Positions 7,589 through 25,287 of a DNA stretch of 47,739 nucleotides are shown here, one piece after another. The notes under the pieces were generated by a model. That model made no database searches. It was not told the origin of the DNA and worked only from the letters and a program-made list of their open reading frames with translations. Each line of letters starts with the position of its first letter. Positions within the stretch are counted from its first letter, which is position 1. This DNA comes from Planctomycetota bacterium. Its GTDB lineage: Bacteria > Planctomycetota > UBA1135 > UBA2386. Location of the stretch: positions 1-47,739 of the forward strand of contig JBASWX010000398.1 of the NCBI GenBank assembly GCA_049276695.1. The letters are read 5' to 3'. The translations under genes were made by a program, and so were the position numbers.

Positions 7589-7677
7589 CGCGCATCTCCA
7601 CCGCGTGGGCGGTGGCCTCATCGGGAGATGACGCCGACTGTTGCGCACAACTACTGCCGCAGCGAGGCTTGGCCGCC

Positions 7678-8217
7678 GTGATCGACGTGCGCACCGAGCA
7701 GCTGCTGCCGCTGAAGGACCTGCCCGGCTACCTGGAGTCACGCGGCTACGGCATTGCCGTGTCCATGCGTGTGGTCCGTCGGTGGATCCGCGTCGGCTGC
7801 GAAGGCGCCTGTCTTGAAGTCGTGCGAATCGACGGCGAGACCCTGACGAGTCTGGACGCGGTGCAGCGATGGGTCGCGGCGCAGAACCCGCAGGGCGGTC
7901 GAGACCAACCGGCGAAGGCCGAGCCCGTTCCCCACGACGCCACCCCCGAGCACACAAACAGCATTCAGCTGCTGCGCGAACACCGGGTCGTGTCGACCGA
8001 TCTCGACAGGGTCGTGCACTCGCTTCCCGGCTTCACACGACCAGCCCTGGGCTACGCCGCTGGCCTGCTGTTTCGCGCCGGCCTTCGAAACCTCGAGGAC
8101 CTGCGAAAGCGCGGGTTGGACCGCATCCTGGCGATGGACGGTGTTGGTGCATGCACAACGAAGGTGGTGCGGGCGGTGTGGGACCAGCTGAACACCGACC
8201 GCACGGCAACCAGTTAG
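7678..8217 (+). CDS. DUF1580-like HTH protein with C-terminal helix-hairpin-helix segment
   Basis: LLPLKDLPGYLESRGYGIAVSMRVVRRWIRVG...LEVVRIDGETLTSLDAVQRWV parallels the ORF at 1408. The C-terminal LEDLRKRGLDRILAMDGVGACTTKVVRAVWDQL looks HhH-like. The gene is divergent from the integrase. The GTG start at 7678 is my assumption; the track start is 7612. Confidence 0.55.
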   Translation: MIDVRTEQLLPLKDLPGYLESRGYGIAVSMRVVRRWIRVGCEGACLEVVRIDGETLTSLDAVQRWVAAQNPQGGRDQPAKAEPVPHDATPEHTNSIQLLREHRVVSTDLDRVVHSLPGFTRPALGYAAGLLFRAGLRNLEDLRKRGLDRILAMDGVGACTTKVVRAVWDQLNTDRTATS

Positions 8218-8394: not shown

Positions 8395-11300
8395 ATGCCA
8401 CTCTCGGCTGCACGCTGGACCCAGTTCAACGCCACCCCGCACCCGTGGGAACAGGACGCGCTCCACTTCCTGCGCGAACAGCTGGCTGACGTCGAACCGA
8501 ACCGAGTCTGGTCGCTGTTTGAGTTCATCTCGGCCGAGGGCACGATCGGCGAAGTCGACGCCCTGGTGCTGACGGCGAAGGGGTTCTTCCTCGTCGAGAT
8601 CAAGAGCCGCCCCGGTCGCATCACGGGCGACGCGGCGTCGTGGACGTGGCACACACCGGAAGGCAAACGGGTCACCGACGACAGCCCCGTCTTCGCCACC
8701 GATCGCAAGTGCAAGCGCCTGATCAGCCTGCTGCGCCGCCAGAAGGCGCTGCGCGACCACGACCCGGGCAAACTGTTCCTCCAGCCGCTGGTGTTCCTGT
8801 CGGCGACCACCCAGCAGGTCGAACTCGACGAACCGCTGCGCCGTCACCTCTGCACGCGCACCGGCTCGCCGGGAACCCAAAGCCTGCGCGACGCGCTGAC
8901 CCGGATCGAACCCACCCATCACCGCCACCGGGTCATCGACGTCCGCCTTGCACGCGACATCGCGCAGGCGCTCGCCCAGGCCGGCATCCGTGAATCGCAG
9001 AGCCACAAGCGCTTCGCGAACAGCCACGAACTGGTCTCGGTGCTGCTCGAGGGTGCCGGCCACCAGGACTGGCTCGCGCGGCACCTGAGCTCCGCGAAGG
9101 TTCAACGGCGCATCCGCATCTACCCGGTCGCCTCGACCGTCGACATCCCGACCCGCCAGATGCTCACACGCGCCGCCCAGCGCGAGTTCTTCGGGCTCCG
9201 GGACATCGACCACCGCGGCATCCTGCGCGCCGTCGACTTCCAGGAAGGGGAACAGGGCCCCGGCGTCATCTTCGACTACGACCCGGACGACGTCCGGCTC
9301 GACCTGTTCCTCCGCGACGAGGGCGACAAGCTCAACCTGAGCGACCGGCTGTCGATCCTGCGGCAGATCGCCGAAGCGACGCAACACGCGCACGAGCGAC
9401 GCCTGGTGCACCGCGCACTGACCCCGCACAGCGTGCTGATCCGGAAGCTGCCGAACGCCGGCTACGCGACCCGCCTCTACAACTGGCAGACTTCGGCGCG
9501 GGAATCGACCTCAGCGACGGCGCTCGGCACGAGCAGCGGCACGGTCACCAGGCACATCGACAACCTCGTCGACCAGGGCGCGATCCCCTACTTGGCGCCC
9601 GAGACGCACACCGATCCAACGGTGCGGGCCGAGCACCTCGACGTGTTCGGCCTCGGCACGATCGCCTGGCACCTGTTCACGGGTCGCGCGCCAGCCGACA
9701 GTCGCTCGGACCTGCTCGAACGGCTACGCCGCGACGACGGACTCCTGCTCTCTTCGGCGGTCGACAACGTGCATGCCGCGCTGGTCGAGCTGGTCCGCCA
9801 GAGCACGCGCCCACGCGTGCCCGATCGCTTGCAGACCGTCCGCGACTTCCTGCATCAGCTCGACGAAGTCGAGAACGAGCTGACGCGGCCGGCCGACCTG
9901 GTCTACGAGAACCCAACTGCAGCCAGGGTCGGCCAGCGCTTCGAAGAGGGTGGCTGGGTGATCAAGAACCGCCTGGGTCAGGGCAGCACGTCGGTTGCGT
10001 TCCTCGTCGAGCGCTCGAAGGGCGGCACCACGCAGCAGCGCGTGCTCAAGGTCGCACTCGATCCCGAGAAGAACGGCACCCTGCAGGCCGAGTACGAAGT
10101 CCTGAAGTCGCTGCATCAGGAATCCATCATCGAGTGCGACGACATGCTCGACTGCGCGGGCCACACCGGCCTCCTGCTCGCGCGTGCCGGTGAGGAATCC
10201 GTCGCAACCCGACTGCGCAAGGGCCGCCTCGAGATCGAGATGCTGCAGCGGTTCGGCGAGGACCTGCTGTCCGCGCTCCGTTACCTCGAAGAGAACGCAG
10301 TCTTCCATCGCGACATCAAGCCCGACAACCTCGGGATCGCCGCCCGCGGCCGCGGCGACTACCAGCACCTGGTCCTGTTCGACTTCTCGCTCTCGCGAGC
10401 CCCGCTGTCGCAGATCCAGGTCGGCACGCGCGCCTACCTCGACCCGATGCTGGGCCAGAAGGGCCGCCGCCAGTACGACCCGGCAGCCGAACGCTACGCG
10501 GCCGCTGTCACGCTGTTCGAGATGGCGACGGCCCGGCTACCGAAGTGGGGCGACGGGCTCACCGCGCCCGAACTCAGCGACCGCGAAGTCGATCTGTCCG
10601 ATGAAGGGCTGTTCGACAGCTCGGCGCGCGAAGCGCTCACCGAGTTCTTCACCAAGGCGCTGCGGCGCGACGCCGCGCAGCGCTTCGACAACGCCGAGGA
10701 GATGCGGCGCGCCTGGCGCCGGACCTTCGAGTCGCTCTCGGCTCCAGCGAAGAAGACCGAGCCCGAGAAGGTCACGCCGCACTCCTCGGTGCAGTTGCTG
10801 GGACTCTCGACGCGGGCACTGACGACCCTCGAACGGGCTGGAATCGACACCGTCCGCCAACTGCTGACTGCACTGCCCGGCCGCATCACCAAGGCGCGAG
10901 GTGTCGGCGCCAAGACGGGCGAGGAGCTGCTGCGAGCCATCAGCTCGCTGCGCGCACAGTTCCCCGACATCCAGCCGGGGAGCGAGTTGCCGGCGGTGAA
11001 GCCGCGCACCGACGAAGACGACGAACCCGGCAACGACTCGCTGCCAGCCCCCTCCTTGGACCAGCTCGCGGGGTCGCTGCTGCCGGCACCGCGCAGCAAG
11101 GCCAAGGCAGACCAGCTGCCGGCGCAGGTCCTTGTGTCGCTGCTCTCGCCGCCTGCCGGGGAGCAGGACCCGCTGCCGTGGCCGACGCAAACCGAGGTGG
11201 CGAAGGTCCACGGCTGCACGACGGTGCTGGTCAATCAGACTCTCGCCAAGGCACGGGCGCGGTGGCGCAAGAACGGCGCGCTGTCCGCGATCCGCGACGC

Positions 11301-12639
11301 GCTGCTGCCGCATCTCGTCACTCAAGTTGGGATCGCCAGCATCGCGGAAGCCGTGGATCAGATCGCGCAGGCGTACGGTGACGGCGTGCCGGATTCCGAA
11401 CGCACGCGCTACGCCCGCATCGTGCTGCGCGCCGCGATCGAGGCCGAGCAGGATCTCGACGAGCCCCGCTTCGAAGCCAGCCGGCGGCAGGACCGGATCT
11501 GGCTCGTCGCCAACCAGGACGGCGACGGGCAGCCGATCGACGCCGACGCCCTGCTGCGCTACGCCCAGGATCTCGGCCGGCGCGCGCGCGAACTCGCCTA
11601 CGCGGAACCGCTGCCGGCACCGGCGCGCGTGCTCGAGCGGTTGCAGCAGACCAACGTCCCGGACGCAGTTCCGCCGTTGTCATCCGAGCGGCTGGTACGT
11701 CTCGCTGCCGTCGCGGGCGACGTTGCAGTGTCGGGCAAGCTCGAGGTCTACCCACGTGGCATGCCGGCCGCGCGGGCCCTGAAGCTCGCCCACGGCGCCT
11801 TGCTCGGTGCGGCGGCACTGACCCCGATTCAGATCCGCGACCGGATCGCCAGCCGCTACCCGGCCGCCGAAGCCCTCCCGGCGGCGGCCAGCGAACTGCG
11901 GCCGCTGCTGCAGGCCGTGGTGCCGGACCTGCAGTGGGACGGAGAGCACGGCACGTTCCGCTTCCGCAGCGCGACGAAGCCGCAGCTGACCGGCGAGCGC
12001 ACGCTGCCAGCACGGGTGTCGACCGGCACGTTGCCGCCGGCCGAGTCGCCGGAGGTGGTCGAGGCGCGCGAGTTTGACCAGAAGCTGGTGAAGGCGCGCG
12101 AGAAGTTCCTGGTGCTGACCGTCCTGCGCGAGCACCACGAGACCGTGCTGCACCGGCTGCAGGACCGGTTCGGCGAGCAGGTGCGGGTGGTGTCATGCGA
12201 GCGGGTGTTCCTGGAGGAGTTGCGGCGGGTCGCGACGAAGTACGAGGTTGCGTGGTCAGAGGTTCTGGCCGCAGACGCCGACCCCGTTGGCTCGCCGAAG
12301 AACCGTGACCTGCGCGAGTTCGTGCGCGAAGTGGCGAGCAGGCTCGGGGACGTGATCGGCAGCGACACGCCGGCAGCGACGGTCCTGGTGACGCGGCTCG
12401 GCGTGCTGGCGCGCTACGGGTTGCTGGCGCAGGTCGTCCAGCGGCTGCGCGAACGGGTAACCGCGAAGCCAGGCACGGACGGGGCCCTCGGCGGCGCGTG
12501 GCTGCTGGTGGCGGCGATGGATGCGCAGGCGCTGCCGGTGGTCGATGGCGTGCCGGTTCCGGTGCCTGGCAGCCGGAGTGACTTCACGGCGGTGCCGCCG
12601 TCGTGGGTACACCTGGGCCAGCGGGAGCGCGCATCGTGA
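8395..12639 (+). CDS. pglW: BREX type 2 protein kinase PglW (NERD-like nuclease N-terminus, tandem kinase-like domains, HhH, large C-terminal region)
   Basis: The NERD/PD-(D/E)xK-like segment is GEVDALVLTAKGFFLVEIK. The first kinase-like domain has HRALTPHSVLI...PYLAPE. The second has VLKVAL, HRDIKPDNLGI, LFDFSLS and YLDP. The HhH is LLGLSTRALTTLERAGIDTVRQLL. The size (1414 aa) and the context with pglX/Y/Z also fit. Confidence 0.85.
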   Translation: MPLSAARWTQFNATPHPWEQDALHFLREQLADVEPNRVWSLFEFISAEGTIGEVDALVLTAKGFFLVEIKSRPGRITGDAASWTWHTPEGKRVTDDSPVFATDRKCKRLISLLRRQKALRDHDPGKLFLQPLVFLSATTQQVELDEPLRRHLCTRTGSPGTQSLRDALTRIEPTHHRHRVIDVRLARDIAQALAQAGIRESQSHKRFANSHELVSVLLEGAGHQDWLARHLSSAKVQRRIRIYPVASTVDIPTRQMLTRAAQREFFGLRDIDHRGILRAVDFQEGEQGPGVIFDYDPDDVRLDLFLRDEGDKLNLSDRLSILRQIAEATQHAHERRLVHRALTPHSVLIRKLPNAGYATRLYNWQTSARESTSATALGTSSGTVTRHIDNLVDQGAIPYLAPETHTDPTVRAEHLDVFGLGTIAWHLFTGRAPADSRSDLLERLRRDDGLLLSSAVDNVHAALVELVRQSTRPRVPDRLQTVRDFLHQLDEVENELTRPADLVYENPTAARVGQRFEEGGWVIKNRLGQGSTSVAFLVERSKGGTTQQRVLKVALDPEKNGTLQAEYEVLKSLHQESIIECDDMLDCAGHTGLLLARAGEESVATRLRKGRLEIEMLQRFGEDLLSALRYLEENAVFHRDIKPDNLGIAARGRGDYQHLVLFDFSLSRAPLSQIQVGTRAYLDPMLGQKGRRQYDPAAERYAAAVTLFEMATARLPKWGDGLTAPELSDREVDLSDEGLFDSSAREALTEFFTKALRRDAAQRFDNAEEMRRAWRRTFESLSAPAKKTEPEKVTPHSSVQLLGLSTRALTTLERAGIDTVRQLLTALPGRITKARGVGAKTGEELLRAISSLRAQFPDIQPGSELPAVKPRTDEDDEPGNDSLPAPSLDQLAGSLLPAPRSKAKADQLPAQVLVSLLSPPAGEQDPLPWPTQTEVAKVHGCTTVLVNQTLAKARARWRKNGALSAIRDALLPHLVTQVGIASIAEAVDQIAQAYGDGVPDSERTRYARIVLRAAIEAEQDLDEPRFEASRRQDRIWLVANQDGDGQPIDADALLRYAQDLGRRARELAYAEPLPAPARVLERLQQTNVPDAVPPLSSERLVRLAAVAGDVAVSGKLEVYPRGMPAARALKLAHGALLGAAALTPIQIRDRIASRYPAAEALPAAASELRPLLQAVVPDLQWDGEHGTFRFRSATKPQLTGERTLPARVSTGTLPPAESPEVVEAREFDQKLVKAREKFLVLTVLREHHETVLHRLQDRFGEQVRVVSCERVFLEELRRVATKYEVAWSEVLAADADPVGSPKNRDLREFVREVASRLGDVIGSDTPAATVLVTRLGVLARYGLLAQVVQRLRERVTAKPGTDGALGGAWLLVAAMDAQALPVVDGVPVPVPGSRSDFTAVPPSWVHLGQRERAS

Positions 12640-12725
12640 TCGCTCCCGGACACTTCGGACAGCCGCTGCCTGTGTAGAACGGAACGGGCCATCGGTTCGC
12701 GCTCTGGTCTCTACGACCCGCGCGC

Positions 12726-13619
12726 ATGAACAAGCCAACCCAGGTCTTCCCCCGCTGCCCCATCACGACCGTCAACTACCACTGCTGGAAGCCGTGCAAC
12801 ATGCGCTGCCGGCACTGCTTCGCCCGCTTCAACGACGCCGGGCACGACAACCTGCCCCGCGAACAGATGCTGGCCGTCGTTCGCGAACTCGCGCTCGGCT
12901 TCGAGCGCATCACGTTCGTCGGCGGTGAGCCGACCCTGTGCCCCTGGCTGCCCGAGGCGCTCCAACTCGCGCACAGTCTCGGGCTCGCGACGAGCATGGT
13001 GACGAACGGCACCAAGATGCTGCGCGATCCGGCGCTGCGCGACGCCATCCTGGCGGGCATGGACTGGATCGGCCTCTCGGTCGACAGCGGCTGTGCCGAC
13101 ACCAACCGCGCGATCGGCCGCACGTATGGACGGTCGGTGATCTCGCCCGACGAACTGGCCACCCTTGCGGACTTCATCCACCGCGCCGGCGTTCAGCTGA
13201 AGGTCAACACCGTCGTGCAGCGCCACAACCTGGACGAGGATCTTGCCCCTCTGGTGCGGCGCCTGCGACCGGGTCGCTGGAAGCTGCTGCAGGTGCTCCC
13301 CGTCCGCGGACAGAACGACGCCGACTACATCGACCTGGCGATCACGCGCGACGAGTTCCAGCGATTCGTGGACTGCCACCGTCCGGTCGGCTCCTCCGGC
13401 ATCACGATCGTGCCCGAGGATCACGAACTCATGACTGGCAGCTACGCGATGGTCGACCCGGGCGGCTACGCCTACGACAACGTCGCCGGGCAGCATCGCT
13501 ACAGTTCCGCGCCCGTCCATCAGATCGGCTGGCGCACCGCGTTCACCGAGGTGCAACTGCTCGCCGAGCGATTCGTCGCCCGGGGCGGCAACTACGCGAG
13601 CCGGGGAGCCGAGCAATGA
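12726..13619 (+). CDS. Prokaryotic viperin (pVip), radical SAM enzyme
   Basis: The protein is collinear with my recollection of animal viperin (RSAD2). Matching blocks are VNYHCWKPCNMRCRHCF (CxxxCxxC), ERITFVGGEPTL, MVTNGTKM, DWIGLSVDS, LKVNTVVQRHNLDEDL..LRPGRWKLLQVLPVRGQN, IVPEDHELMTGSYAMVDP and ERFVARGGNY. Confidence 0.9.
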   Translation: MNKPTQVFPRCPITTVNYHCWKPCNMRCRHCFARFNDAGHDNLPREQMLAVVRELALGFERITFVGGEPTLCPWLPEALQLAHSLGLATSMVTNGTKMLRDPALRDAILAGMDWIGLSVDSGCADTNRAIGRTYGRSVISPDELATLADFIHRAGVQLKVNTVVQRHNLDEDLAPLVRRLRPGRWKLLQVLPVRGQNDADYIDLAITRDEFQRFVDCHRPVGSSGITIVPEDHELMTGSYAMVDPGGYAYDNVAGQHRYSSAPVHQIGWRTAFTEVQLLAERFVARGGNYASRGAEQ

Positions 13620-15475
13620 GCGCCACCTCGACGCCGACCTTCTTCCAGCTGCTCGACCTCGTGATCCAGGCGTTCCACCTCGACTTCGACGTCGACGAGC
13701 AAGGCCAGCCGATCGAGGTGCCAAGACTGAGCGGGGGCGGACCGTTCCAGCATCACTTCACGGGCCGCCGGTTCGACATCCAGGACCAGGGTCTGCAGAC
13801 GCTGCTGCGGACGTTCGGCGAGGCTCTGCTGCGCTCCGACATCATCCCGGTCATCCGCAAGTCGCTGCGGTGGGACGAACCCGGCAGCCGAGGGCCACTG
13901 GTGCAGCAGTACCTCGCCGATGCCGCGTCGGTGCCGGCTTGCAGCGGCGACCTCGGCGACGCCATCGTCGGGCGCCTCAGCTGGCTCGCGCAGGAGCACG
14001 AAGCCCTGCTCGGGGAAGCCCGTTCGCGAATCGCAGGTGCGGAGGTCGATCCGGCGTTCGGCCTCATGCCGCTGATGCGATTCGGCTGGCACCACCTGAC
14101 GGTCGCCCTGTCACTGCTGCCGTGGTCCGGTTCCATCGACGAACGCACTCTGGAACCAGACTCGGTCGAGATGACGTGGTGCATGGAGGTGCCGCCGACC
14201 ACGCCGATGAGCCGTGCCCGGGCAGCGGCCGGCAAGAGCCTCGACGAACTGACTCTCGACCTGGTCGGCGCCGACGGCAACCGCAACTGGAACGAGAAGA
14301 CCGTCGCGAACCTCGAGCACGGCGGTCCGGCGCACCCGACCTTCCAGGCCATCCACGCCGCTGCCTCGGTGCTGCATCCGCACGACCAGCTCGCCCTACC
14401 GCGGTGGCGTCGTTGGTACGGCTTGCGCCATCTCGCGCGCCAGTTCGCCAAGACCTGGTGTTGGGAGTGGCTGGGCGGGTGCCTGACCACCACGCTCACG
14501 CACGCGCACGCACAGTCCCAGGCCATGCGCGAATCGGATCTCGCGCAGGAGCAGCGGAGGACAGTGACCTCGATCGGCCTCTTCGCCGGCTGGCGGCTGG
14601 GGTTCGCTCGCTGGGCATTCGGCGAAGTGGCCCGCGCACCCGAGAACGACATCCATCCTGTGATTCGAGCCGACTACGCCGCAATCAGCCGGTCCGAGGA
14701 ATCGTCCCGCTTGACGACTTGCCTCCAGTTGGCCACCGGAGCGCGGTCCCTCGAGGCGACCTTGTTGGATCACGGCCGCAGCGCGTCGGCCGCCCGCCGG
14801 GAAGCGAGCCAGCTGATCTGGAACTTCCAGGGCAACCAGAGCCAGTTTCGGCATCTCCATCCGCTGGCGGAGTTGTTCCACTCCAGGAACGAGCGCAATT
14901 GGCCAGCCATGGAAGCGGCGGCGGGCAAGCTCGTCGAGCAGCGCCCGGACCTGTCCGACAACCACCGGGTGCTGGCCGAGGCTTTGGCCGATCAGAACCA
15001 CTTCGAAGACGCGCTTTCCGTCACCAGAGACGCGCTGACCCGGTTCCCGGCGGACGGAGGCTTGGCGATGACCGAGATCGCCGTGCTGATGATGCGTGGT
15101 GACCACCACACCGACCGCCACGACTTCGAGGTCGCTCGCGACAAGCTGCTGGCGATGCAGCTCACGGATGACGACTGGGTCCAGCACCTCCACCTCGCTG
15201 ACTGCCATCTGGCTCTCGGCGCCTGGGCAGCGGCTCGGGATGCGTGTAGGCGGGTGATCGCGACGAACGGCCAGTGCGGCGAAGCCCACGCGATCCTCTC
15301 CTTCTGCCGGTCGAAGCTCGGCGACGATCCGCGGAACACGGCTGCGAAGGCAGCGCGCCGTGGAGAGCAGGGCTTCGTCGACCTGCTGCACGAACTCGAC
15401 CGCCGCGGCGAACTCGGTACTGCGGCGCACCCGCCGGTCGCGCGCTGGCACCGACTCTGGCGATTCCGTCGCTGA
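13616..15475 (+). CDS. Uncharacterised 619-aa protein with an HTH-like segment and C-terminal TPR-like repeats; translationally coupled to the viperin
   Basis: The ATG at 13616 overlaps the viperin stop (ATGA). A possible XRE-like HTH is GKSLDELTLDLVGADGNRNWNEKTVANLEHGG. The C-terminal helical repeats are HRVLAEALADQNHFEDALSVTRDALTRFP..., HLADCHLALGAWAAARDACRRVIATNG and CGEAHAILSFC. The part of the track ORF upstream of 13616 is an out-of-frame overlap with the viperin. Confidence 0.75.
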   Translation: MSATSTPTFFQLLDLVIQAFHLDFDVDEQGQPIEVPRLSGGGPFQHHFTGRRFDIQDQGLQTLLRTFGEALLRSDIIPVIRKSLRWDEPGSRGPLVQQYLADAASVPACSGDLGDAIVGRLSWLAQEHEALLGEARSRIAGAEVDPAFGLMPLMRFGWHHLTVALSLLPWSGSIDERTLEPDSVEMTWCMEVPPTTPMSRARAAAGKSLDELTLDLVGADGNRNWNEKTVANLEHGGPAHPTFQAIHAAASVLHPHDQLALPRWRRWYGLRHLARQFAKTWCWEWLGGCLTTTLTHAHAQSQAMRESDLAQEQRRTVTSIGLFAGWRLGFARWAFGEVARAPENDIHPVIRADYAAISRSEESSRLTTCLQLATGARSLEATLLDHGRSASAARREASQLIWNFQGNQSQFRHLHPLAELFHSRNERNWPAMEAAAGKLVEQRPDLSDNHRVLAEALADQNHFEDALSVTRDALTRFPADGGLAMTEIAVLMMRGDHHTDRHDFEVARDKLLAMQLTDDDWVQHLHLADCHLALGAWAAARDACRRVIATNGQCGEAHAILSFCRSKLGDDPRNTAAKAARRGEQGFVDLLHELDRRGELGTAAHPPVARWHRLWRFRR

Positions 15476-15687
15476 ACCTACCCACGCCGACCAACGCGCT
15501 TCGACGTACGCGCCTTCGCAGGGCCTCAGCGCGTACGCCCACTGGTGGTCTGCGCCGGTGCGCGGTCAGCCCTGGTCTCGGCGCGGCAAGCGAGCCTTGC
15601 CCCTTGTGGAGTTCCGCACCCACGCTTCGTACTCTCCCGCGCCCCGGGGACTCCTCGACCGGACGAGGCTCCCCCACCTCTCCGACC

Positions 15688-16563
15688 ATGCCCAGTCTCG
15701 CCTACGTGAAGCACACCCGCATCAACCTGCGCGACACGGAGTACACCGAGAAGTGGCTGCAGGATCGGATCGCCGAGGATCCCTCCATCCTCGGCATCCC
15801 GGGCGATCTCGAACTGCTCGACCGCGAGCGCCGCCAGGAACGCGCCGGCCGCCTCGACCTGGTGCTCTACGACCGGGAGGCGGAACGGCGCTACGAGCTC
15901 GAACTGATGCTGGGCAGCCTCGACGAGAGCCACATCATCCGCACGATCGAGTACTGGGACCTGGAGCGCCGCCGCTACCCGGGCTACGAGCACATCGCGG
16001 TGATCGTCGCGGAAGACGTGACCGGTCGGTTCCTGAGCGTGCTCAGTCTGCTCGCCGGCACGATCCCGCTGATCGTGCTGCAGTGCCACGCGCTGCAGAT
16101 CGACGGCAGGCTGCTGCTGAACTTCGTGAAGGTGATGGACCAGACGTCACTGCGTCGCGACGACGAACACGAAGCCCGGGCCGAACCCGCGACGCGCGAG
16201 TACTGGATCGAACGCGTCGGCGGCGAGATCCTCACCGTCTGCGATCGCGCGGTCGAAGTCATGAACGGCAAGGCCAAGGGCAAGATGAGCCTGAACTACC
16301 TTCGCCAGTACATCAACATCAACGACGGGACCCGCAGTGGCGCGTTCGTCCACTTCGTACCGAAGAAGAAGTTCGTGCACTTCAAGATCGAGGTCCAGGA
16401 CGCTGCGTCGTGGATCGAGCGCATCGAGAAGACGGGTCTCGATGTCCGCCCCGGCCGCAACGGAGCGGCGGTGCGGGTGACCGTGATGCCGAAGGACTTC
16501 GACCGGTGCCTGCCGACGCTCACCGAGCTGCTGCAGACTGCGGTCACCGAGTACGAAGCTTGA
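15688..16563 (+). CDS. Restriction-endonuclease-fold (NucS/PD-(D/E)xK-like) protein with a C-terminal alpha/beta domain
   Basis: WLQDRIAEDPSILGIPGDLELLDRERRQERAGRLDLVLYDREAERRYELELMLGSLDESHIIRTIEYWD resembles the core of NucS-type nuclease-fold proteins, although the ExK lysine is not evident. GC3 is high. The stop lies 3 nt before the pglX start. Confidence 0.7.
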   Translation: MPSLAYVKHTRINLRDTEYTEKWLQDRIAEDPSILGIPGDLELLDRERRQERAGRLDLVLYDREAERRYELELMLGSLDESHIIRTIEYWDLERRRYPGYEHIAVIVAEDVTGRFLSVLSLLAGTIPLIVLQCHALQIDGRLLLNFVKVMDQTSLRRDDEHEARAEPATREYWIERVGGEILTVCDRAVEVMNGKAKGKMSLNYLRQYININDGTRSGAFVHFVPKKKFVHFKIEVQDAASWIERIEKTGLDVRPGRNGAAVRVTVMPKDFDRCLPTLTELLQTAVTEYEA

Positions 16564-16566
16564 GCG

Positions 16567-19500
16567 ATGATCGACCGCCAGGCCCTGCTCACCGACCTGC
16601 AGCCGCTCGTCGTCGAACTCGTCGAGGATCTGCGGACCCGACTCGCGGAACACCCGGCATCGAAGGCGCTCGTCGACGGCGACTACGACGCGGCGCGGAG
16701 GGCCGGGCGCACGGCACAGACGCTCGCGGCGTTCGCCGAGGATCACCTGACGCAGGTCGCGGTGGCGTGGGTGCTGGCGACGGTGTTCGTGCGGTTCGTC
16801 GAGGACAACCAGCTCTGCGACGAGCCATGGTTCTCCGGACCGGGCAAGCGGCTCGCTCAGGCCCGCGACCGCTACACCACCTGGCTGCGGAACAACAGCA
16901 AGCTCAGCGACCGCGAGTACCTGCTGCACGCGTTCGGGGCGCTGGGCAAGCTGCCGGGGCTCGCCCCTCTGCTCGGGCCGCAGAACACGCTGCTGCACCG
17001 GATCGGGCCGTCCGCCGACGGTGCGCGCACGCTGCGCGAGTTCTGGCAGCAAATCGAAGGGCAGGGCGACGCCTCGAACCTGACGCACGACTTCACCGAC
17101 CCCGCGGCGGACACGCGCTTCCTCGGCGACCTGTACCAGGACCTGTCGGAGTCGGCCAAGGACAAGTTCGCCCTGCTGCAGACGCCGATCTTCGTCGAGG
17201 AGTTCATCCTCGACCGCACGCTCGAACCGGCCCTCGCCGAGTTCGGGCTCGCGGAGGTGCGGCTGATCGATCCGGCCTGCGGGTCGGGGCACTTCCTGCT
17301 CGGGGCGTTCGCGCGGTTGTTTCAGCGTTGGTCGGATCGGGAGCCGGGAACGCCGGTGCAGGAACGCTGCAAGCGTGCGCTCGACGCGGTGGCTGGAGTG
17401 GACCTGAACCCGTTCGCTGTCGCGATCGCGCGCTTCCGGTTGTTGGTCGCGGCGCTGAAGGCGTGCGATGTGCGTCGGCTAGCCGAGGCGTACGACTTCC
17501 GACCGAAGGTCGCAAATGGCGACTCGCTGTTGCACGGCCAGCAGGGACTGCGGCAGCGGTCGTTCAGTGCCGAGGAGGAGGCGGAGTTCGACCACTTCTA
17601 CGGCAGCGAGGACAAGGCGCTGCTGAAGTCAATCTCCGCACGCAGCTACCACGCGGTAGTCGGGAACCCACCGTACATCGTGGCGCGCGACAAGGCGCTC
17701 AACGCCCTCTACCGGAAGCGTTTCCCCGAGGTATGCCATCGGCAGTACTCGCTTGCAGTGCCGTTCACGCAGGTGTTCTTCGAGCTCGCGCGACCGTCGC
17801 TCGACGAGAAGCGTGGGGCGGGTTTCGTCGGGGTGATCACGGCGAACTCGTTCATGAAGCGCGAGTTCGGCAGCAAACTGATCGAGGATTACCTCAACAG
17901 GCGCGTCGAGGTGTCACACGTAATCGACTTGTCTGACGCGAGCATTCCGGACCACAACACTCCGACCGCGGTCCTCCTGGGCAGAGCTCGGCCGCCCACC
18001 AGTCAGTCGATTCGAGCTGTGCGGGGCATCAAGGGAGAGCAGGGAATCCCAGACGACCCGACAAGGGGCTTGGTCTGGTTGTCAGTTCTTGACCAGGTGG
18101 ACAAGCCGGGCACGCAAAACGAGTACACAAGCTGCAGTGATGTGCCCCGAGAGCAGTTCGCACGCCATCCATGGAGCATCGGGGGCGGCGGCGCAACGGA
18201 GTTGAAGGCGCAGATCGAGGAGGTGTGCGAGAAGACGCTCACATCCCTCTCGGAGGCGCCAATCGGCCGTGCCGTCCGCATCGCCGAGGAAGAAGTGTTC
18301 ATGTTCCCCGGCAACCGTCGCCGTTACTCGAAGGCACCTGAACGCGAATTCCGAGGCTTCCTTGTCGGCGAGTCTCTTCGCGACTGGGGCAGCTCGATCG
18401 ACACCTGGGTCTGGTACCCGTACGAGGAGGGCGCTGACGCTTCTCCGATGCTGCGCGAGCTTTGGCCGTGGCGAACCAGCCTTGCGAACCGGTCTACGTT
18501 CCAAGGAAAGATGGCTGACGCGGGGCTCAGGTGGTTCGACTACATGCAGCACACGGCGTCTGCCTACTGCACCCCTCTGTCCATCGCCTTCGCCGAAGTC
18601 GCCACCCACAACCACTTTGTCCTCGACCGCGGCGGCAAGGTGTTCAAGCAAACGGCACCGGTCATCAAGCTGCCTGCTGGCGCCACCGAGGATGAGCACA
18701 TCGGCCTCCTCGGCCTGCTGAACAGTTCGGTCGCCTGCTTCTGGCTGAGGCAGGTTTGCCACAACAAAGGGCTCAGGGGTCAGAGCGGTGGGATTACCTC
18801 GGAGAAGTGGGAGCAGTTCTTTCAGTTCTCGGCAACGGCACTTGGCGAGTTTCCGGTGGCAGAGTTGAGGCCCGCCATTCGGGCGCGGCCGCTTGACGCG
18901 CTCGGATCTCAACTCGCTAGCGAGGTCACGACAACATCTGGCGCCGAGCACAGCAAGACGCTCGCGCACCTGATCGCTCTTCAAGAGGAGATCGACTGGG
19001 AGTGCTATCGGCACTACGGCATCCTGAAGGACGACTTGACGTTCCCAACAGCCGACGTCCCCCCCCTCCAACTCGGCCAGCGCGCGTTCGAAGTCGTCCT
19101 CGCACGCCAGCTCGCCGCCGGCAAGACCACGACGACGTGGTTCGAACGCCATGGCTCGACACCGATCACCGAGGTCCCCGCGCAGTGGCCCAAACCCTAC
19201 CGCGACCTCGTACAGCGCCGCATCGACTGCATCGAGAAGAACGCCGACATCCGCCTGATCGAGCAGCCCGAGTACAAGCGCCGTTGGAACGTCGAGCCGT
19301 TTGCCGAGCAGCTGCACCGCGCCCAGCGTTCCTGGCTGCTCGACCGCATGGAGGATCCCAGGTTCTGGCCCGAGCCGCGGCTCGTCAGCACCGCGCGCTT
19401 CGCCGAACAGCTTCGCCGCGACGCCGATTTCAAGCGGGTCGCCGACCTCTACCGCGGTCGCGACGACTACGACTTCGACGACCTCGTGCGCGAGCTCGTC

Positions 19501-20106
19501 GAGTCCGAGGCGGTGCCGTTCCTGCCCGTGCTGCGCTACAAGCTGTCCGGCCTGCGCAAGCTCGCCGACTGGGAAGCGACGTGGGCGCTGCAGCGCCGCG
19601 AGGATGCTGGCGAGAAGCTGAAGGACCCGATTCCCGTTCCACCGAAGTACACGAGTGCCGACTTCCTGAAGAGCACCTGGTGGTCGCTGCGCGGCAAGCT
19701 CGACGTCCCGAAGGAACGCTTCCTCCTCTACCCCTTCGCCGAACGCGGTGACGACCCGACCCCCGTGTTCACCTGGGCAGGCTTCGACCAGCAGCAGCAG
19801 GCCCACGCCCTTACCGCGCGCTACCAGGACCGGAAGCACCAGGATGCCGCCACGCCAGACCAGCTCTTCCCCCTGCTCACCGGCCTCCGCGAACTGCTGC
19901 CCTGGCTCCTCCAGTGGCACAACATCCCGACGACCGAAGCGCCGTCCGGCCTCGGCACCGAGTACCAGCGATTCCTCGCCAGCGAACTGCTCGCCCTCGA
20001 CAAGACCGAGAAGGACCTGACCGACTGGACGCCACCGGCGCGACCGCGCGGCCGCCGCGCTGCAAGGCGCGGCAACCGCCCGGATGCCAACGAGGTGGCT
20101 GACTGA
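16567..20106 (+). CDS. pglX: BREX adenine-specific DNA methyltransferase PglX
   Basis: The SAM-binding motif I is LIDPACGSGHFLLGAF and catalytic motif IV is VVGNPPYIV. The size is 1179 aa and the gene sits in BREX context. Confidence 0.9.
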   Translation: MIDRQALLTDLQPLVVELVEDLRTRLAEHPASKALVDGDYDAARRAGRTAQTLAAFAEDHLTQVAVAWVLATVFVRFVEDNQLCDEPWFSGPGKRLAQARDRYTTWLRNNSKLSDREYLLHAFGALGKLPGLAPLLGPQNTLLHRIGPSADGARTLREFWQQIEGQGDASNLTHDFTDPAADTRFLGDLYQDLSESAKDKFALLQTPIFVEEFILDRTLEPALAEFGLAEVRLIDPACGSGHFLLGAFARLFQRWSDREPGTPVQERCKRALDAVAGVDLNPFAVAIARFRLLVAALKACDVRRLAEAYDFRPKVANGDSLLHGQQGLRQRSFSAEEEAEFDHFYGSEDKALLKSISARSYHAVVGNPPYIVARDKALNALYRKRFPEVCHRQYSLAVPFTQVFFELARPSLDEKRGAGFVGVITANSFMKREFGSKLIEDYLNRRVEVSHVIDLSDASIPDHNTPTAVLLGRARPPTSQSIRAVRGIKGEQGIPDDPTRGLVWLSVLDQVDKPGTQNEYTSCSDVPREQFARHPWSIGGGGATELKAQIEEVCEKTLTSLSEAPIGRAVRIAEEEVFMFPGNRRRYSKAPEREFRGFLVGESLRDWGSSIDTWVWYPYEEGADASPMLRELWPWRTSLANRSTFQGKMADAGLRWFDYMQHTASAYCTPLSIAFAEVATHNHFVLDRGGKVFKQTAPVIKLPAGATEDEHIGLLGLLNSSVACFWLRQVCHNKGLRGQSGGITSEKWEQFFQFSATALGEFPVAELRPAIRARPLDALGSQLASEVTTTSGAEHSKTLAHLIALQEEIDWECYRHYGILKDDLTFPTADVPPLQLGQRAFEVVLARQLAAGKTTTTWFERHGSTPITEVPAQWPKPYRDLVQRRIDCIEKNADIRLIEQPEYKRRWNVEPFAEQLHRAQRSWLLDRMEDPRFWPEPRLVSTARFAEQLRRDADFKRVADLYRGRDDYDFDDLVRELVESEAVPFLPVLRYKLSGLRKLADWEATWALQRREDAGEKLKDPIPVPPKYTSADFLKSTWWSLRGKLDVPKERFLLYPFAERGDDPTPVFTWAGFDQQQQAHALTARYQDRKHQDAATPDQLFPLLTGLRELLPWLLQWHNIPTTEAPSGLGTEYQRFLASELLALDKTEKDLTDWTPPARPRGRRAARRGNRPDANEVAD

Positions 20107-21182
20107 TGTTCACGCTCCGGCTCCCAACTCCCAGCGGAGCCCCAGAGGTGTTCGATGTTCATCGGGTCCAGCCGATCGAGCTGACCGCCTTTTCCCGTTT
20201 CGTTTCCGGCAGGACTACCTCCTTCCGCGTGCGGATCCGCGGGCGTGCGCACACCGCGGCGGCCGCCCATGCTGACGTGCGCTGGTTCGATCTGAGCGTT
20301 CGTTACGATCAAGGTCTCAGACACTTCGCCCTCGTGCCCGGAGGTGTGCTGCCGCCGGACTTCGTGCTGCGCGGCGGCACTCGAGTGCTCATGGACCGGA
20401 ACGTGGTCTCGGACCTGCGGCAGATGCCCGCGGTCGACGTCGGCGCTCCGCACCAGCTGCGATGGCTCGATGTCGACGGCTTCCATGTGAATCCCATCCT
20501 CGGCGTCGTCGAGGGGTCCAAAAGACGTCCGCAGACGTTCGGCGAGTTCGAACGCGAGTACACCCGAGCCGAGAGGTTGGTCGCCCGGCGTCTGCCGCGG
20601 GCGAAGGTCGTGCAGTTCTCCGGCAGCAAGCGGAGGATGATGTTCGACATGCATCTGGAGTTCGCGCCTCGCGCGGCACGGGAGGGGCAGTTCCTTCGAG
20701 GGATCGCGGGCCGCCTCGCCGAACAGGTGCCTGATCGGGACCTCCGCACGACCGAGCAGTTCGTCTTGCAGGCTGCAGCGCAGGCCGGCCTTCAGCCAAT
20801 GACCGCGGTCGTGTTGACCGCCCTTGCGAAGCTCCACGAGGGCAGGCACGGCTCACCGGCCGCCAAGCTGCTGAAGCTGAGGGAACTCCGTGACGCTGGA
20901 GGCGACTGGCAGGGCTGCGCCTACAACGCCGTTGCCGACGTTCGGCAGATGGAGTTGCTTTCGAACGGGATCGCGATGCCCGACTTCGTCGCGGGGTTGA
21001 CCGGTGACCTGGGGCTCGCGCAGGTGTGGTGTGGTCTACGCCCCACGGGAGTGAAACTCTGCGACGGCAGGGTTGGGTTCTACTTCCGCCTCGATCCCGC
21101 ACTGTTCCCTCGTCTCGACGGGACGACCGAGGACCTCATCGAGCGCATCAACGCCGGCGGCACCGCCGCCGCCGGAGGCTGA
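20106..21182 (+). CDS. Hypothetical protein, first gene of the cassette coupled to pglX (weak PIN-like pattern)
   Basis: The ATG shares one base with the pglX stop (TGATG). The acidic-residue pattern VLMDRNVVSDL ... NPILGVVEG ... YNAVADVRQMELL loosely recalls PIN-like nucleases. No secure family assignment. Confidence 0.7.
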   Translation: MFTLRLPTPSGAPEVFDVHRVQPIELTAFSRFVSGRTTSFRVRIRGRAHTAAAAHADVRWFDLSVRYDQGLRHFALVPGGVLPPDFVLRGGTRVLMDRNVVSDLRQMPAVDVGAPHQLRWLDVDGFHVNPILGVVEGSKRRPQTFGEFEREYTRAERLVARRLPRAKVVQFSGSKRRMMFDMHLEFAPRAAREGQFLRGIAGRLAEQVPDRDLRTTEQFVLQAAAQAGLQPMTAVVLTALAKLHEGRHGSPAAKLLKLRELRDAGGDWQGCAYNAVADVRQMELLSNGIAMPDFVAGLTGDLGLAQVWCGLRPTGVKLCDGRVGFYFRLDPALFPRLDGTTEDLIERINAGGTAAAGG

Positions 21183-21443
21183 GGCTGGGATGCCCAGGGG
21201 AAAGATGGAACCCGACCACGGTCAAGAGCGCGCCGTGGTCGTCGATCGAGAACAGCACTCGCGTCGTCGTCGTGCCCTCGGCAAGGCCCGAGAAGGACCT
21301 TGACCGACTGGGGGCCCCCGGCGCGAACGCGCCGCCGCCGCCGCGCCCGGCACCAACCGACGACGGTTCACCGTCCCGCGCCCGGGGGATGACCGCCCGC
21401 GGATTGGGTGCGGATGCGCACCGGATCGATCGGATCGTCGGCC

Positions 21444-21471
21444 TTGACAAAGGGGACGCCCGACGTAGCTT
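21444..21471 (+). promoter_or_regulatory. Candidate sigma70-like promoter in the 340-bp gap before the ORF at 21523
   Basis: TTGACA (21444-21449), then 16 nt, then TAGCTT (21466-21471). The -10 match is weak and promoter rules for this lineage are uncertain. Confidence 0.2.
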
Positions 21472-21522
21472 CCCCGCCTGAGCCGATGTGGCTCGCCCGC
21501 GCAGCCGGGATCCGCTGCAGCC

Positions 21523-22170
21523 TTGCGACCCATCGATGTCATGAAGACCAGACTGATCATCCTCGCGGACGGTGCCCTGCTGCACGTTCGCAACGCGAAG
21601 GCCAAGGAGAGAACCCCCGAGACAAGGGACCGCACCGCCGAAGTGCCGCCACCCGTCCTGGACTTCCTCAAGCTGCCGGCCGCGATCGCGAAGCAGCTCG
21701 ATGTTCAGACGCCGCCGATCGCCGACTGCCACTGGTTCATGGTCGGCGCGGCGAACGCTGCCAAGTTCATCGAGACGATCAGCCAGGCATGGTCGGTCCA
21801 CGAGTTCCCGTTGCGGGCATTCACGATCGGACCAGTGACTGGCGATGCGCAGGCCAGGTTCACGCCCGCGATCTCGTGGGCGCTCGGCAACATCGCCAGC
21901 AGCAACCTGAAACCGACGGTGGTCGTGCTCAGCAACGACGCCGGCGTCATCTTCCCCGCCAAGTTCACGATCGATCGCGGCGCAGCCGACGTCATGCTCG
22001 CCTGGCCCGATCCGCTCAGTGAAGAATCCCGCTATTTCGCGGATTGGAACGAGGTGCGCGTGCTGCCTCTCGAGCCGAACGACGTGCGTGCCCCTGGGCA
22101 CCGCCCATCGTTCGGTCGCACGTTCCTTGTGCAGAGCGATCCAGATGGGTCGCCGAAGCGCAAGGCCTGA
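21523..22170 (+). CDS. Hypothetical protein (weak NYN/LabA-like pattern)
   Basis: RLIILADGALL near the N-terminus and VVVLSNDAGVIFPAKFTIDRGAADVMLAW loosely recall the DG.N and SGDSD segments of NYN/LabA RNase-fold proteins, in degenerate form. An alternative ATG start is at 21541. Confidence 0.6.
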   Translation: MRPIDVMKTRLIILADGALLHVRNAKAKERTPETRDRTAEVPPPVLDFLKLPAAIAKQLDVQTPPIADCHWFMVGAANAAKFIETISQAWSVHEFPLRAFTIGPVTGDAQARFTPAISWALGNIASSNLKPTVVVLSNDAGVIFPAKFTIDRGAADVMLAWPDPLSEESRYFADWNEVRVLPLEPNDVRAPGHRPSFGRTFLVQSDPDGSPKRKA

Positions 22171-22265
22171 TCGACTCCGCCCTCTTCGTTCGGACCGGAG
22201 GGCAAGCTGCGAAGGGACGATCCCTTCGCGGTGAATCGTGGTCCGTCGATTCTCAAGGATTGGTC

Positions 22266-22499
22266 ATGCATGCAGTCACCGTCACCGGTGTCCCGAACCT
22301 GAGGGATGCGCACCGGATGTGGTTGAACCTCGGCGGCGAGGTCACGTTTCCCGCGGGTACGGGCGAGATCCTGTTCTCGCACCCTGACGTCGGAAAGATC
22401 CGCGTCAACTACCGGCGCAAGGACAGCTCTCGCAAACTCGTTTCAAAGCTGCGCCGCCTCATCTCGCTGTGCGCCGACGGCGTGAAGGGGGCCCGGTGA
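22266..22499 (+). CDS. Small hypothetical protein (77 aa; HicA-like pattern without the catalytic His)
   Basis: TGEILFSHPDVGKIRVNYRRKDSSRKLVSKLRRL parallels the HicA segment GSHHIFKHPD..G.VTVPHPKKDL.....SILKQ. Its stop overlaps the next start (GTGA). Confidence 0.5.
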   Translation: MHAVTVTGVPNLRDAHRMWLNLGGEVTFPAGTGEILFSHPDVGKIRVNYRRKDSSRKLVSKLRRLISLCADGVKGAR

Positions 22500-23074
22500 A
22501 GAGCTTCCCTCCGATCCGGTTGGACTTGGCGGACGGTCGCGCTCGCCGCATCGACGCTTCCGGGGTCGCGATGTTCGTTCACGAGGTCCTTCTCCACCCA
22601 GCGCGCAACCTCCCCGTCGTCGGCGTGACCACGAGCCCGGACTACGATGGATGCTTGGTCGACGAGCAGCTTCTCGCCGCCAAGCTTCGCGACGTCGCGC
22701 CGGTCGTGGTGATCGCGACGGGGCGGGCGACTTGGTTGCTGACCGAGGCGCTGTCGCGCAACCTGAGTGTCCACCACGGCTACGTCCGCGTCTGGATGCC
22801 GCGCCTGCGGTGTAGTTCGCCCGAGTCCGCCAACCCGCGCATCCAGATCGACTGTGATCGCGAGGCCGATGCCGTGGCCTCGCGGGTCTTGCTGGCCGCC
22901 CGCTTTGGACTGCGGTTGGGCAACGACAAGTGTTCGCCCCGCGCGCCTGCCGGAGTCTCCGGTCCAGCCCGGTCGCTCGTGAAGACCGGAGGCTCGGGCG
23001 TACCCTTCGACCCACAGGGCCCCCTTGCGGACGTACTGGGCTGGCAGCACGGCGACAGCTGGTCACCGCTGTAG
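22496..23074 (+). CDS. Hypothetical protein
   Basis: The GTG at 22496 overlaps the upstream stop. The ~190-aa product has protein-like composition and no recognisable motif. Its 3' end overlaps the convergent HNH-like gene by 12 nt. Confidence 0.55.
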   Translation: MKSFPPIRLDLADGRARRIDASGVAMFVHEVLLHPARNLPVVGVTTSPDYDGCLVDEQLLAAKLRDVAPVVVIATGRATWLLTEALSRNLSVHHGYVRVWMPRLRCSSPESANPRIQIDCDREADAVASRVLLAARFGLRLGNDKCSPRAPAGVSGPARSLVKTGGSGVPFDPQGPLADVLGWQHGDSWSPL

Positions 23075-23782
23075 CCAACTTCGAGGGCGTCGGTGCGAAG
23101 GTGCGCCGACGCCCTCGGCGACTGCTTGCTGGACGTACGCCAGGAACCAGACGCGACGATAGAACGTGCCCACCCAGAGGCTGGTCGGCTCGTTCGGCTG
23201 TGGAAACACCGCGTACTCGAACACGTCCCCAATCTGATGGATGTGGTCTTGGGGCCGTTCGCCGAAGAGTTGTCTCGTGGCAGCGGGAATCCGGTGCCCG
23301 AACTGTTCGAGGTGCACTCGCACCACGCAGTCCCGTGGCAGTGGCATGCCAGCCTCGATGAAGAACAACCCGCGAATCGTCTGGCGGACCACCGCCTGTA
23401 GCCGAGGGATGTTCACACGCAGGCCCACACCGCGGCCGACGTAGACGCCGCCGGGCGACTTGATGGCGACGTTGACGAACGCGTTGCGGACCTCGTCGGC
23501 GAGCCACTGCGTCCCTGGTCGCCAGAACGAGCGCGCGACCACAGCGCGAACCTTGCTTGCCGTCGGGCAGTCGGCCACGTTGGCCGAGGCAGCGATCACC
23601 GCCCGGAAGTACTCGCCGTCCTTCGCCCAGGACCGGTTGCACTCCGCGCAGGCCGGCACGGTGATCAGGTTCCCAGGCCGCGGCGGCGGGAAGAGACACC
23701 CCGGCGGAACGTGATCCCGGGTCGTCGCCTGTCGGCGCTGGCAGAACACGCAGACTTGTTGTTGGGCCACCACTTGTGTCAA
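23063..23782 (-). CDS. HNH-like (Cys-rich) endonuclease domain protein
   Basis: The N-terminus CVFCQRRQATTRDHVPPGCLF...NLITVPACAECN is a CxxC ... DH ... CxxCN arrangement typical of HNH/His-Me finger nucleases. The remaining ~180 aa are uncharacterised. Confidence 0.7.
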   Translation of the reverse strand: MTQVVAQQQVCVFCQRRQATTRDHVPPGCLFPPPRPGNLITVPACAECNRSWAKDGEYFRAVIAASANVADCPTASKVRAVVARSFWRPGTQWLADEVRNAFVNVAIKSPGGVYVGRGVGLRVNIPRLQAVVRQTIRGLFFIEAGMPLPRDCVVRVHLEQFGHRIPAATRQLFGERPQDHIHQIGDVFEYAVFPQPNEPTSLWVGTFYRRVWFLAYVQQAVAEGVGAPSHRRPRSWLQR

Positions 23783-23858
23783 TCCGAACTAGCCGACCGC
23801 CCGCCGCGTTTCACGTTCAGTACGGGAAAGCCGCGCTGGTTCGCGGCCGTCTCCGCCG

Positions 23859-24771: not shown

Positions 24772-24783
24772 GCGAGGTGGCCG

Positions 24784-25068
24784 CTACGGCTTGATCCCCT
24801 TGATGAACTCGTCGCGATCAGCCTCACTGACTTCCCTGCAGATCCAGCCGGGTCCAGAAGGCTCGGCCTTGATCCACTTCAGCCGCCGCAGCGAATCGGG
24901 GTTGCCGAGGTCGAGACCGGACCCGACGGTCGTGTACGCCTCGAGCTTCCTGATGTGCGGCAACACGACGATGATGCCTTGCTCCGGGCCGGTCAGCGCG
25001 GCCAACTGGCTCTGGATCAGCACCTCGAGGGTGCGGAAATGGCCGAGCGTGTCGTTGGTCGTCGTCAT
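24784..25068 (-). CDS. Small hypothetical protein (94 aa), first gene of the minus-strand trio
   Basis: ATG-initiated ORF divergent from pglY, with protein-like composition. The next minus-strand ORF starts 12 nt downstream. Confidence 0.5.
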   Translation of the reverse strand: MTTTNDTLGHFRTLEVLIQSQLAALTGPEQGIIVVLPHIRKLEAYTTVGSGLDLGNPDSLRRLKWIKAEPSGPGWICREVSEADRDEFIKGIKP

Positions 25069-25287
25069 CGTGGTCTCACGCTTCTAGATCGAACGGACCG
25101 CGGAGCAACCGAGAGGAGCTTCGACCGCGGGATCCTATCGCCGCCTCGGAAGACTGGATGCCGGACCTTGCTCTTGCCCAACGACCGAACGGCTCGGTCG
25201 GGCGCCGCGAACTCCCCTGACCTGTGGAAAGTCACTACCGCAGGCTCCGGCGGTTCGCCATCATCCGTCCTCCGAGGAAGCGGCACG

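Follow-up and report, generated by a model that had tools for sequence, protein, structure and literature searches.

The sequence analysed here (the window) is a 47.7-kb stretch of DNA from a Planctomycetota bacterium, with a G+C content of 68%, that carries a complete bacteriophage exclusion (BREX) type 2 locus in which PglW, PglX, PglY, PglZ, BrxD and BrxHI are all present. Between its upstream neighbour pglW (8395-12639, + strand; NCBIfam NF033442, 1360 bits) and its downstream neighbour, the gene of the BREX-2 PglX methyltransferase (16567-20106, + strand; NCBIfam NF033451, 1485 bits), lie two further + strand genes that are the subject of this work. The first (12726-13619) encodes a prokaryotic viperin (pVip) of 297 aa, a predicted radical S-adenosylmethionine (SAM) nucleotide dehydratase, and the second (13616-15475), whose start overlaps the viperin stop, encodes a 619-aa partner with a predicted helix-turn-helix (HTH) segment and tetratricopeptide repeats (TPR). 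The nesting of this pair between pglW and pglX, which an initial annotation had proposed from the sequence alone, is borne out by the PglW and PglX family models. The same annotation overlooked a third open reading frame (ORF) in the gap, of 291 aa (15688-16563, + strand; third-position GC 0.90), which lies between the partner gene and pglX and outside the conserved two-gene cassette.

The 297-aa ORF is a genuine prokaryotic viperin. The motifs first used to identify it (CNMRCRHC, GGEPTL, RWKLLQVLPVRGQN and RGGNY) were all found where they had been reported, and residues 14-287 match the NCBIfam model NF038283, "viperin family antiviral radical SAM protein", an antiviral viperin equivalog with a cutoff of 180 bits, at 268.8 bits (E 4.4e-80). 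Matches were also obtained to the PADLOC pVip model (6.9e-79) and to Pfam Radical_SAM (1.7e-17). From residue ~10 to residue ~290-291 the protein can be aligned with viperins of solved structure from animals, fungi and cnidarians (E 1e-25 to 3e-30), and the alignments to 9dfw, 6b4c, 7n7i and 5vsl run through the C-terminal extension with its RGGxY end. The Cys24/28/31 cluster, GGEP at residues 66-69 and RGGNY at residues 286-290 are all conserved within the clade of cassette viperins described below, the first two without variation. Membership in the MoaA or SPASM enzymes, which the initial annotation had named as the outcome that would speak against a viperin, is not what we found: the MoaA and SPASM maturase models are the next-best radical-SAM matches in NCBIfam and score far under their own cutoffs (for MoaA, 53.5 bits vs a cutoff of 284). 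No nucleotide kinase lies next to or is fused to the window viperin between 12640 and 16566, and no usable residue-level rule for reading nucleotide-specificity residues was found in the accessible literature.

The overlap between the two genes was read directly, the viperin TGA occupying 13617-13619 and the partner ATG 13616-13618, so that the ATGA at 13616-13619 stands as first described. Because third-position GC jumps from 0.46 upstream of 13616 to 0.86 from 13616 on, and because homologues of 598-630 aa align from the partner's first Met as residue 1, the 619-aa start is correct; the public gene call for this protein (P0001), at 430 aa, is too short. An AlphaFold2 (AF2) model made from an alignment of 17 sequences reached a predicted local distance difference test score (pLDDT) of 87.4, an earlier model from 6 sequences (pLDDT 50) having been too poor to use. 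The predicted fold is all-alpha, with an N-terminal domain at residues ~8-190, short helices at 197-253, long helix pairs at 260-425 and canonical TPR pairs at 429-596. We accordingly divide the protein into an N-terminal domain (aa 1-192; 13616-14191, + strand), predicted to be helical with one small hairpin (AF2 pLDDT about 90); an XRE/Cro-C1-like HTH segment (aa 193-255; 14192-14380, + strand), modelled as four short helices within 197-253; and an alpha-solenoid (14381-15415, + strand), in which degenerate helical repeats (aa 256-428) are followed by recognisable TPRs (aa 429-600).

The C-terminal TPR-like repeats claimed in the initial annotation are confirmed by Pfam TPR_14 (aa 450-570; 30.8 bits vs a cutoff of 23.5), with further matches to TPR_2 and TPR_19 in the solenoid, the last of these being matched by 16 of 17 partner-family members. 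That annotation could not place the protein in any family, and neither could we: the Pfam matches are to TPR repeats only, and no matches were retrieved from NCBIfam, PADLOC or PHROGs. Its XRE-like HTH is supported by way of a sister family that passes the Pfam HTH_3 cutoff (see below), direct tests on the window's own partner family giving a weak signal. A PDB sequence search returned weak TPR matches and nothing else, and Foldseek with the whole chain against the PDB and the BFVD viral models retrieved TPR proteins only (MamA, OGT and APC), none at E <= 1e-3. For the N-terminal domain (aa 1-192), which is conserved in both the window's partner family and the sister family, no PDB, Pfam or Foldseek match was obtained. 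No catalytic family was detected in the partner with Pfam, NCBIfam, PADLOC or PHROGs, and none of these four libraries has a model for it; for the sister family, too, no model is present in NCBIfam, PADLOC or PHROGs. Judged from sequence and the structural model, the partner thus appears to be a non-enzymatic-looking protein with an HTH plus TPR-solenoid architecture.

The partner family is extremely rare. Among 5.8 billion clustered proteins, matches to the partner fell in only five other clusters, and an exhaustive profile search of 1.84 billion representative proteins yielded about 12 full-length relatives. The weaker profile matches are generic TPR proteins restricted to profile positions ~400-600, so the N-terminal ~400 aa are private to the partner family. 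Together with the lack of any library match beyond TPR, this rarity does not fit the common housekeeping regulator that had been raised as a possible disproof. The partner is absent from IMG/VR, the PLSDB plasmids, the INPHARED phages and PHROGs. A pattern-based genome scan with the partner also gave no match, which was a false negative since one locus (L015) later surfaced through its viperin, and an indexed search with a wider partner alignment did not reach the distant members.

Twelve distinct loci were examined (the window, L001/2, L003, L004-6, the P0006 and P0003 contigs, L007, L008, L009/10, L011, L013/14 and L015). At all 12, a viperin or a kinase-viperin fusion lies immediately upstream of the partner with a 4-nt stop/start overlap, and this holds down to partner identities of 34-37%; the partner's homologues are viperin-associated elsewhere, as the initial annotation needed them to be, and the pairing is obligate. 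In L001/2 and L007 the viperin is fused to a thymidylate-kinase-like domain. Several public "272-aa" radical-SAM calls among these loci are truncated, and use of an upstream Met restores the full Cys motif. Mean pairwise identity across the loci is 65% for the viperins and 44% for the partners, the two being correlated (r = 0.82), and the cassette viperins group together as a single, well-separated clade when 87 viperins are placed on a neighbour-joining tree.

When 185,579 species genomes were scanned with the cassette viperins, 215 viperin loci were retrieved, and the top 80 of them were retained. A protein of 414-881 aa (29 intact, 2 split) comes directly after the viperin in 31 of these 80, all from Chloroflexota/Dehalococcoidia; it starts at or overlaps the viperin stop and has the same layout of N-domain, XRE HTH and TPR as the window partner. 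Its HTH is less equivocal, several members passing the Pfam HTH_3 cutoff of 23 bits (26.6, 25.2 and 23.9 bits) and the family profile matching XRE DNA-binding proteins and repressors in the PDB (E 8e-4 to 0.1). Aligned with hhalign, the two partner families match over 486 columns (97.6% probability, E 3.4e-12), which places the Chloroflexota HTH_3 segment onto window partner residues ~196-253; by this profile comparison we take the families to be homologous over their whole length. The Chloroflexota family comprises at least 105 clusters, annotated at source just as "hypothetical protein". Viperin and partner are the sole conserved genes at the Chloroflexota loci, and no conserved transporter, tailoring or resistance genes were found beside these cassettes. 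One distant relative, a 627-aa protein nearer to the Chloroflexota branch (L012 10001-11884, GCA_027296055.1; E 1.8e-18), stands alone: neither a viperin nor a remnant of one was found within 10 kb, and its surroundings, with Rep_1 and integrase genes, are those of a mobile element. This solo relative implies that such proteins need no enzyme beside them in order to work, in the manner of a regulator.

Seven of the partner loci (the window, L001/2, L003, L004-6, the P0006 contig, L007 and L008, the last assigned to BREX through a PglW C-terminus) have the cassette between pglW and pglX. PglW and PglX of these BREX-embedded loci are 58-67% identical to those of the window, and their viperins make up a single subclade of the viperin tree. 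This combination of one subclade with co-diverged PglW and PglX fits one old insertion: a mobile cassette would have entered between pglW and pglX once, in one Planctomycetota-type lineage, and then have co-diverged with BREX-2. At four other loci the cassette has no BREX genes nearby, namely L015 (a Planctomycetota metagenome-assembled genome), L009/10, L013/14, where the cassette lies in an island with AIPR, TIR, restriction fragments and integrases, and the P0003 contig, where it adjoins an rve integrase and a PLD-helicase. Since these loci exist, and since the P0003 partner is 58% identical to that of the window and thus as close as the BREX-embedded copies, the cassette is autonomous and mobile and a BREX host is not a requirement. 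The initial annotation had counted the BREX setting as part of a new configuration; the nesting is real and it is also inessential.

The region upstream of the viperin contains two short elements. The first, TGTAGA-N6-CGGG (12673-12688, + strand), lies 53 nt upstream of the viperin ATG, and its core TGT[AC]GA is found at -51 to -53 from the viperin ATG in nine of nine Planctomycetota-type loci for which DNA was available, four of which have unrelated upstream genes, against a background frequency of 4.8e-4 per nt. The extended box TGTMGA-N6-YGGG occurs twice in the window, one occurrence being that at 12673-12688. The kinase-viperin fusion of L001/L002 also carries this box twice (L001 8355-8370 and 9062-9077), once 51 nt upstream of the fusion start and once 52 nt upstream of an internal Met of the viperin domain. 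The duplication suggests that the kinase was inserted together with a duplicated leader, the fusion then arising from read-through of what had been an intergenic region. The second element, a -10-like CTACGA box (12711-12716, + strand) 10-15 nt upstream of the ATG, would by its position and likeness be a promoter element; it is similar to CCTACGAT, the -10 element in the sigma70-like promoter GGGCTGAC-N17/18-CCTACGAT found just upstream of the Chloroflexota cassettes. A scan of 12400-16700 for sigma70 promoters and terminators found none, and a conserved RNA fold in the upstream region was considered and rejected (-0.23 kcal/mol). We read the conserved upstream element as a candidate promoter or operator feature of the cassette. 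In the Chloroflexota loci (L016-L092), the stretch from about -90 to -1 relative to the viperin ATG holds the conserved sigma70-like promoter and, after it in the 5' leader, an inverted repeat. This repeat varies in sequence between loci yet stays self-complementary (e.g. TTCCGT...ACGGAA, ACCG...CGGT, GTTG..CAAC), and may form a hairpin in the leader or be an operator that co-evolves.

We propose that viperin and partner make up a self-contained two-gene defence cassette in which the partner serves as regulator or sensor, with control exerted at least partly through DNA, an interpretation to which we would give about an even chance. The viperin would convert a nucleoside triphosphate (NTP) to its 3'-deoxy-3',4'-didehydro chain terminator, this chemistry being established for the family. 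The partner, translationally coupled to it through the ATGA, would act as the regulator or sensor of the cassette: its TPR solenoid would receive an infection-related signal, such as a phage protein, peptide or metabolite, and its HTH and N-domain would turn that signal into control of viperin output, most likely via the conserved upstream element. The partner might also bind the viperin enzyme directly. Control at the DNA level is favoured by the XRE homology, the conserved K/N-T residues with which helix 3 begins, the conserved box and the solo L012 protein. Somewhat more tentatively still, the partner may be a dedicated infection sensor that switches the viperin on, whether by derepression or activation of its promoter or by direct gating of the enzyme. 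If so, the cassette would be an inducible, pattern-triggered viperin module present in at least two phyla, a functional parallel of the interferon-induced viperin of animals, and a second, two-gene type of prokaryotic viperin that present tools score as a lone pVip.

We would like to note that several observations weigh against control through DNA. The HTH segment of the window protein falls under every Pfam HTH threshold; HTH_26 was retrieved for 2 of 16 partner-family segments, below its cutoff, and hhalign set the partner segment against classical XRE domains in the correct register at 44% probability (P 2.4e-4). Both families have a net acidic charge in this segment (-1.5 and -1.75, vs +3.25 for classical DNA-binding XRE domains), and a palindromic operator at the TGT[AC]GA box was rejected, being significant in one locus only. 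As for a sensor, divergence is even across the partner's domains, without a conspicuous hypervariable "sensor" region. A catalytic or other function is formally possible for the N-terminal 190 aa and the middle region, which have no recognisable relatives. Lastly, a coupled downstream regulator of twice the size of the enzyme would be unusual, and such an arrangement fits a stoichiometric complex better.

The account that survives best beside ours, though we think it rather unlikely, is built on that last point and makes the partner a stoichiometric subunit or gate of the viperin instead of a transcription factor. Binding 1:1, the partner would keep the viperin inactive or stable until its TPR solenoid binds a phage protein, and the HTH would be a structural relic that has lost DNA binding. 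The 4-nt translational coupling at every locus, the acidic HTH segment, the missing palindromic operator, the tight co-divergence of viperin and partner and the private N-terminal domain, limited to the partner superfamily, all speak for it. Characterised viperins, however, are reportedly active on their own; helix 3 of the HTH still begins with XRE-like N/K-T residues, and the sister family matches true repressors; and the conserved DNA box that travels with the cassette and the solo relative without any viperin also speak against this account.

It is improbable, in our estimation, that the pair is instead a biosynthetic unit for a 3'-deoxy-3',4'-didehydro (ddh)-nucleoside metabolite, with the partner as a pathway regulator of the SARP or RRNPP kind and the location in defence islands incidental. 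An HTH joined to TPRs is typical of pathway and quorum regulators, and two members of the Chloroflexota family show weak BTAD matches, but every informative context is a defence island or mobile element (BREX-2, AIPR, TIR, restriction fragments, integrases or Schlafen-like genes), the enzyme passes the antiviral viperin equivalog model, and conserved transporter, tailoring or resistance neighbours were not found. That the 619-aa protein is a BREX-2 accessory or regulator, a functional analogue of BrxR with the viperin as a separate passenger, is very improbable: it would account for the seven loci between pglW and pglX and their co-divergence with PglW and PglX at 58-67% identity, yet the partner was never seen with BREX minus viperin, viperin and partner occur without BREX in at least four loci, and the 31 sister-family loci share viperin and partner only.

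Returning to the regulator or sensor reading, the architecture can be compared with several known ones. RRNPP receptors (PlcR, NprR, Rap, PrgX and the phage arbitrium receptor AimR) have an XRE-type HTH followed by a TPR-like ligand-binding solenoid, and the partner is alike in having a predicted XRE-type HTH directly before a TPR-like solenoid. In RRNPP receptors, however, the HTH is at the protein start, whereas that of the partner is internal (aa ~193-255), behind a ~190-aa domain; the phyla also differ, and no Foldseek or sequence match to RRNPP structures was obtained with the partner. The gap between the partner and the next gene is 69-72 nt in L003-L006 and the P0006 contig, so several loci have no room for a signalling-peptide gene, and no conserved small ORF that might be a signalling-peptide candidate is common to the loci. 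With an internal HTH and no adjacent peptide gene found, we rejected RRNPP membership. A STAND/Avs sensor was likewise rejected, as no NTPase family was found with Pfam, NCBIfam or PADLOC and the AF2 model is without a Rossmann-like core. BrxR and CapW are WYL-type regulators attached to defence systems, which the partner resembles as a putative DNA-binding-type protein dedicated to, and co-transferred with, one defence module; it differs from them in having no WYL or winged HTH, in being much larger, and in lying downstream and coupled as opposed to upstream or divergent.

Among viperins, the initial annotation named stand-alone and kinase-paired pVips; both are known, and to these must be added gene pairs with HicA and RelE, which have been proposed to cooperate in defence (PMC10865869). 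The HicA and RelE pairs are alike in having a directly adjacent second gene; their partners are small RNase toxins, whereas the window partner is 619 aa long without a nuclease or toxin signature. The single-gene pVip (Bernheim et al. 2021; PADLOC "Viperins not associated with kinases"; NF038283) is likewise a full-length, motif-complete enzyme of defence islands, and differs in that cassette-clade viperins each carry a coupled 600-aa partner while current models describe one gene. Kinase-associated or kinase-fused pVips (PADLOC pVip-kinase, VakA) have counterparts inside the cassette clade in the fusions of L001/L002 and L007, but the window pVip is kinase-free, and across the clade the kinase is optional and the HTH-TPR partner, by its looks non-enzymatic, is constant. 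No pVip with an HTH/TPR partner is described in the searchable literature, although a mention in subscription papers, e.g. Bernheim et al. 2021, is possible. The claim of a new configuration stands to that extent, and is qualified by how common the partner superfamily is beside Chloroflexota viperins. The HTH-TPR-partnered viperin is a variant of a known defence system, and its BREX nesting is secondary. Type IV restriction or PARIS genes are found nested within BREX-1 loci, and the cassette is similar in being a foreign defence module in the same orientation between core BREX genes; in the present case a viperin cassette occupies the pglW-pglX slot of a type 2 BREX, and the nesting is old and stably inherited.

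Characterised prokaryotic viperins make chain-terminating nucleotides whenever they are expressed, and we know of no trigger for any of them. Some bacterial viperins probably have a built-in regulator or sensor of their own, and the conserved sensor- or regulator-like partner provides a concrete experimental handle on how bacterial viperins are controlled. Of the 80 reference-genome viperin loci that are nearest to that of the window, 32 have a partner of this two-phylum type behind the viperin, and defence-annotation tools thus under-describe a sizeable group of viperin loci. The stable nesting in BREX type 2 is a natural setting in which an epigenetic exclusion system and a nucleotide-analogue system could be tested for co-regulation or synergy.

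The remaining BREX components of the window are PglY (24955-28926), PglZ (28896-31571), BrxD (31568-32881) and BrxHI (32850-34976). The 291-aa ORF between the partner and pglX retrieved no match in Pfam, PADLOC, NCBIfam, PHROGs or the PDB; L001/L002 have a copy of 66% identity at the equivalent place, whereas L003-L006 have none. The ORF, which has a strong coding signal, may represent a further small gene of defence or accessory function in a BREX slot of variable content. Beginning at the final base of pglX, a 358-aa ORF (20106-21182, + strand) gave no match in any library searched. At the same position the relatives have a Schlafen/AlbA_2-domain protein (L001, L003-L006) or a 360-aa protein that was likewise not assigned (P0006 contig), and these BREX-2 operons seem to have a second slot for variable cargo here. 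A stretch of ~3.7 kb (21183-24954) then parts pglW-pglX from pglY, and contains ORFs with weak PADLOC matches to the candidate systems HEC-07 (22469-23074, + strand) and PDC-M01B (23063-23782, - strand) and a 322-aa ORF without matches (23859-24827, - strand).

Upstream of pglW, the window has genes of a phage- or satellite-like kind, which encode a DnaB_N+AAA_25 helicase (1785-3437), a large-terminase-like protein (3984-5519; phrog_2, 1.8e-25) and a DUF1580 protein (7612-8217). The equivalent position in L001 holds integrase, DUF1580 and DUF3987 genes. An integrative element may carry the BREX-2 island as a whole; no tRNA gene was detected in the window.

Apparent exceptions to the two-gene arrangement turned out to be damaged loci. 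The only Radical_SAM+partner fusion (P0255) was rejected as a degraded low-coverage locus, and P0247 was rejected as an informative fusion, its Chloroflexota-type partner being interrupted by a DDE transposase. L095 (4147-5436), on a contig of 2.9x coverage, joins in one frame a viperin without the Cys motif, a fragment of the partner and a tail that resembles a recombinase. L095 and P0247 are degraded Chloroflexota-type cassettes, not genuine fusions.

Other downstream genes were also seen beside viperins. At L057 (6843-8429), a Myxococcota viperin has a 4-nt overlap with a downstream bpMoxR AAA+ ATPase gene, of the type found in MoxR-vWA-beta-propeller ternary systems, and at L053 (5339-6709) a Limisphaerales viperin is followed by a D5_N/DUF5906 primase-helicase-like protein.

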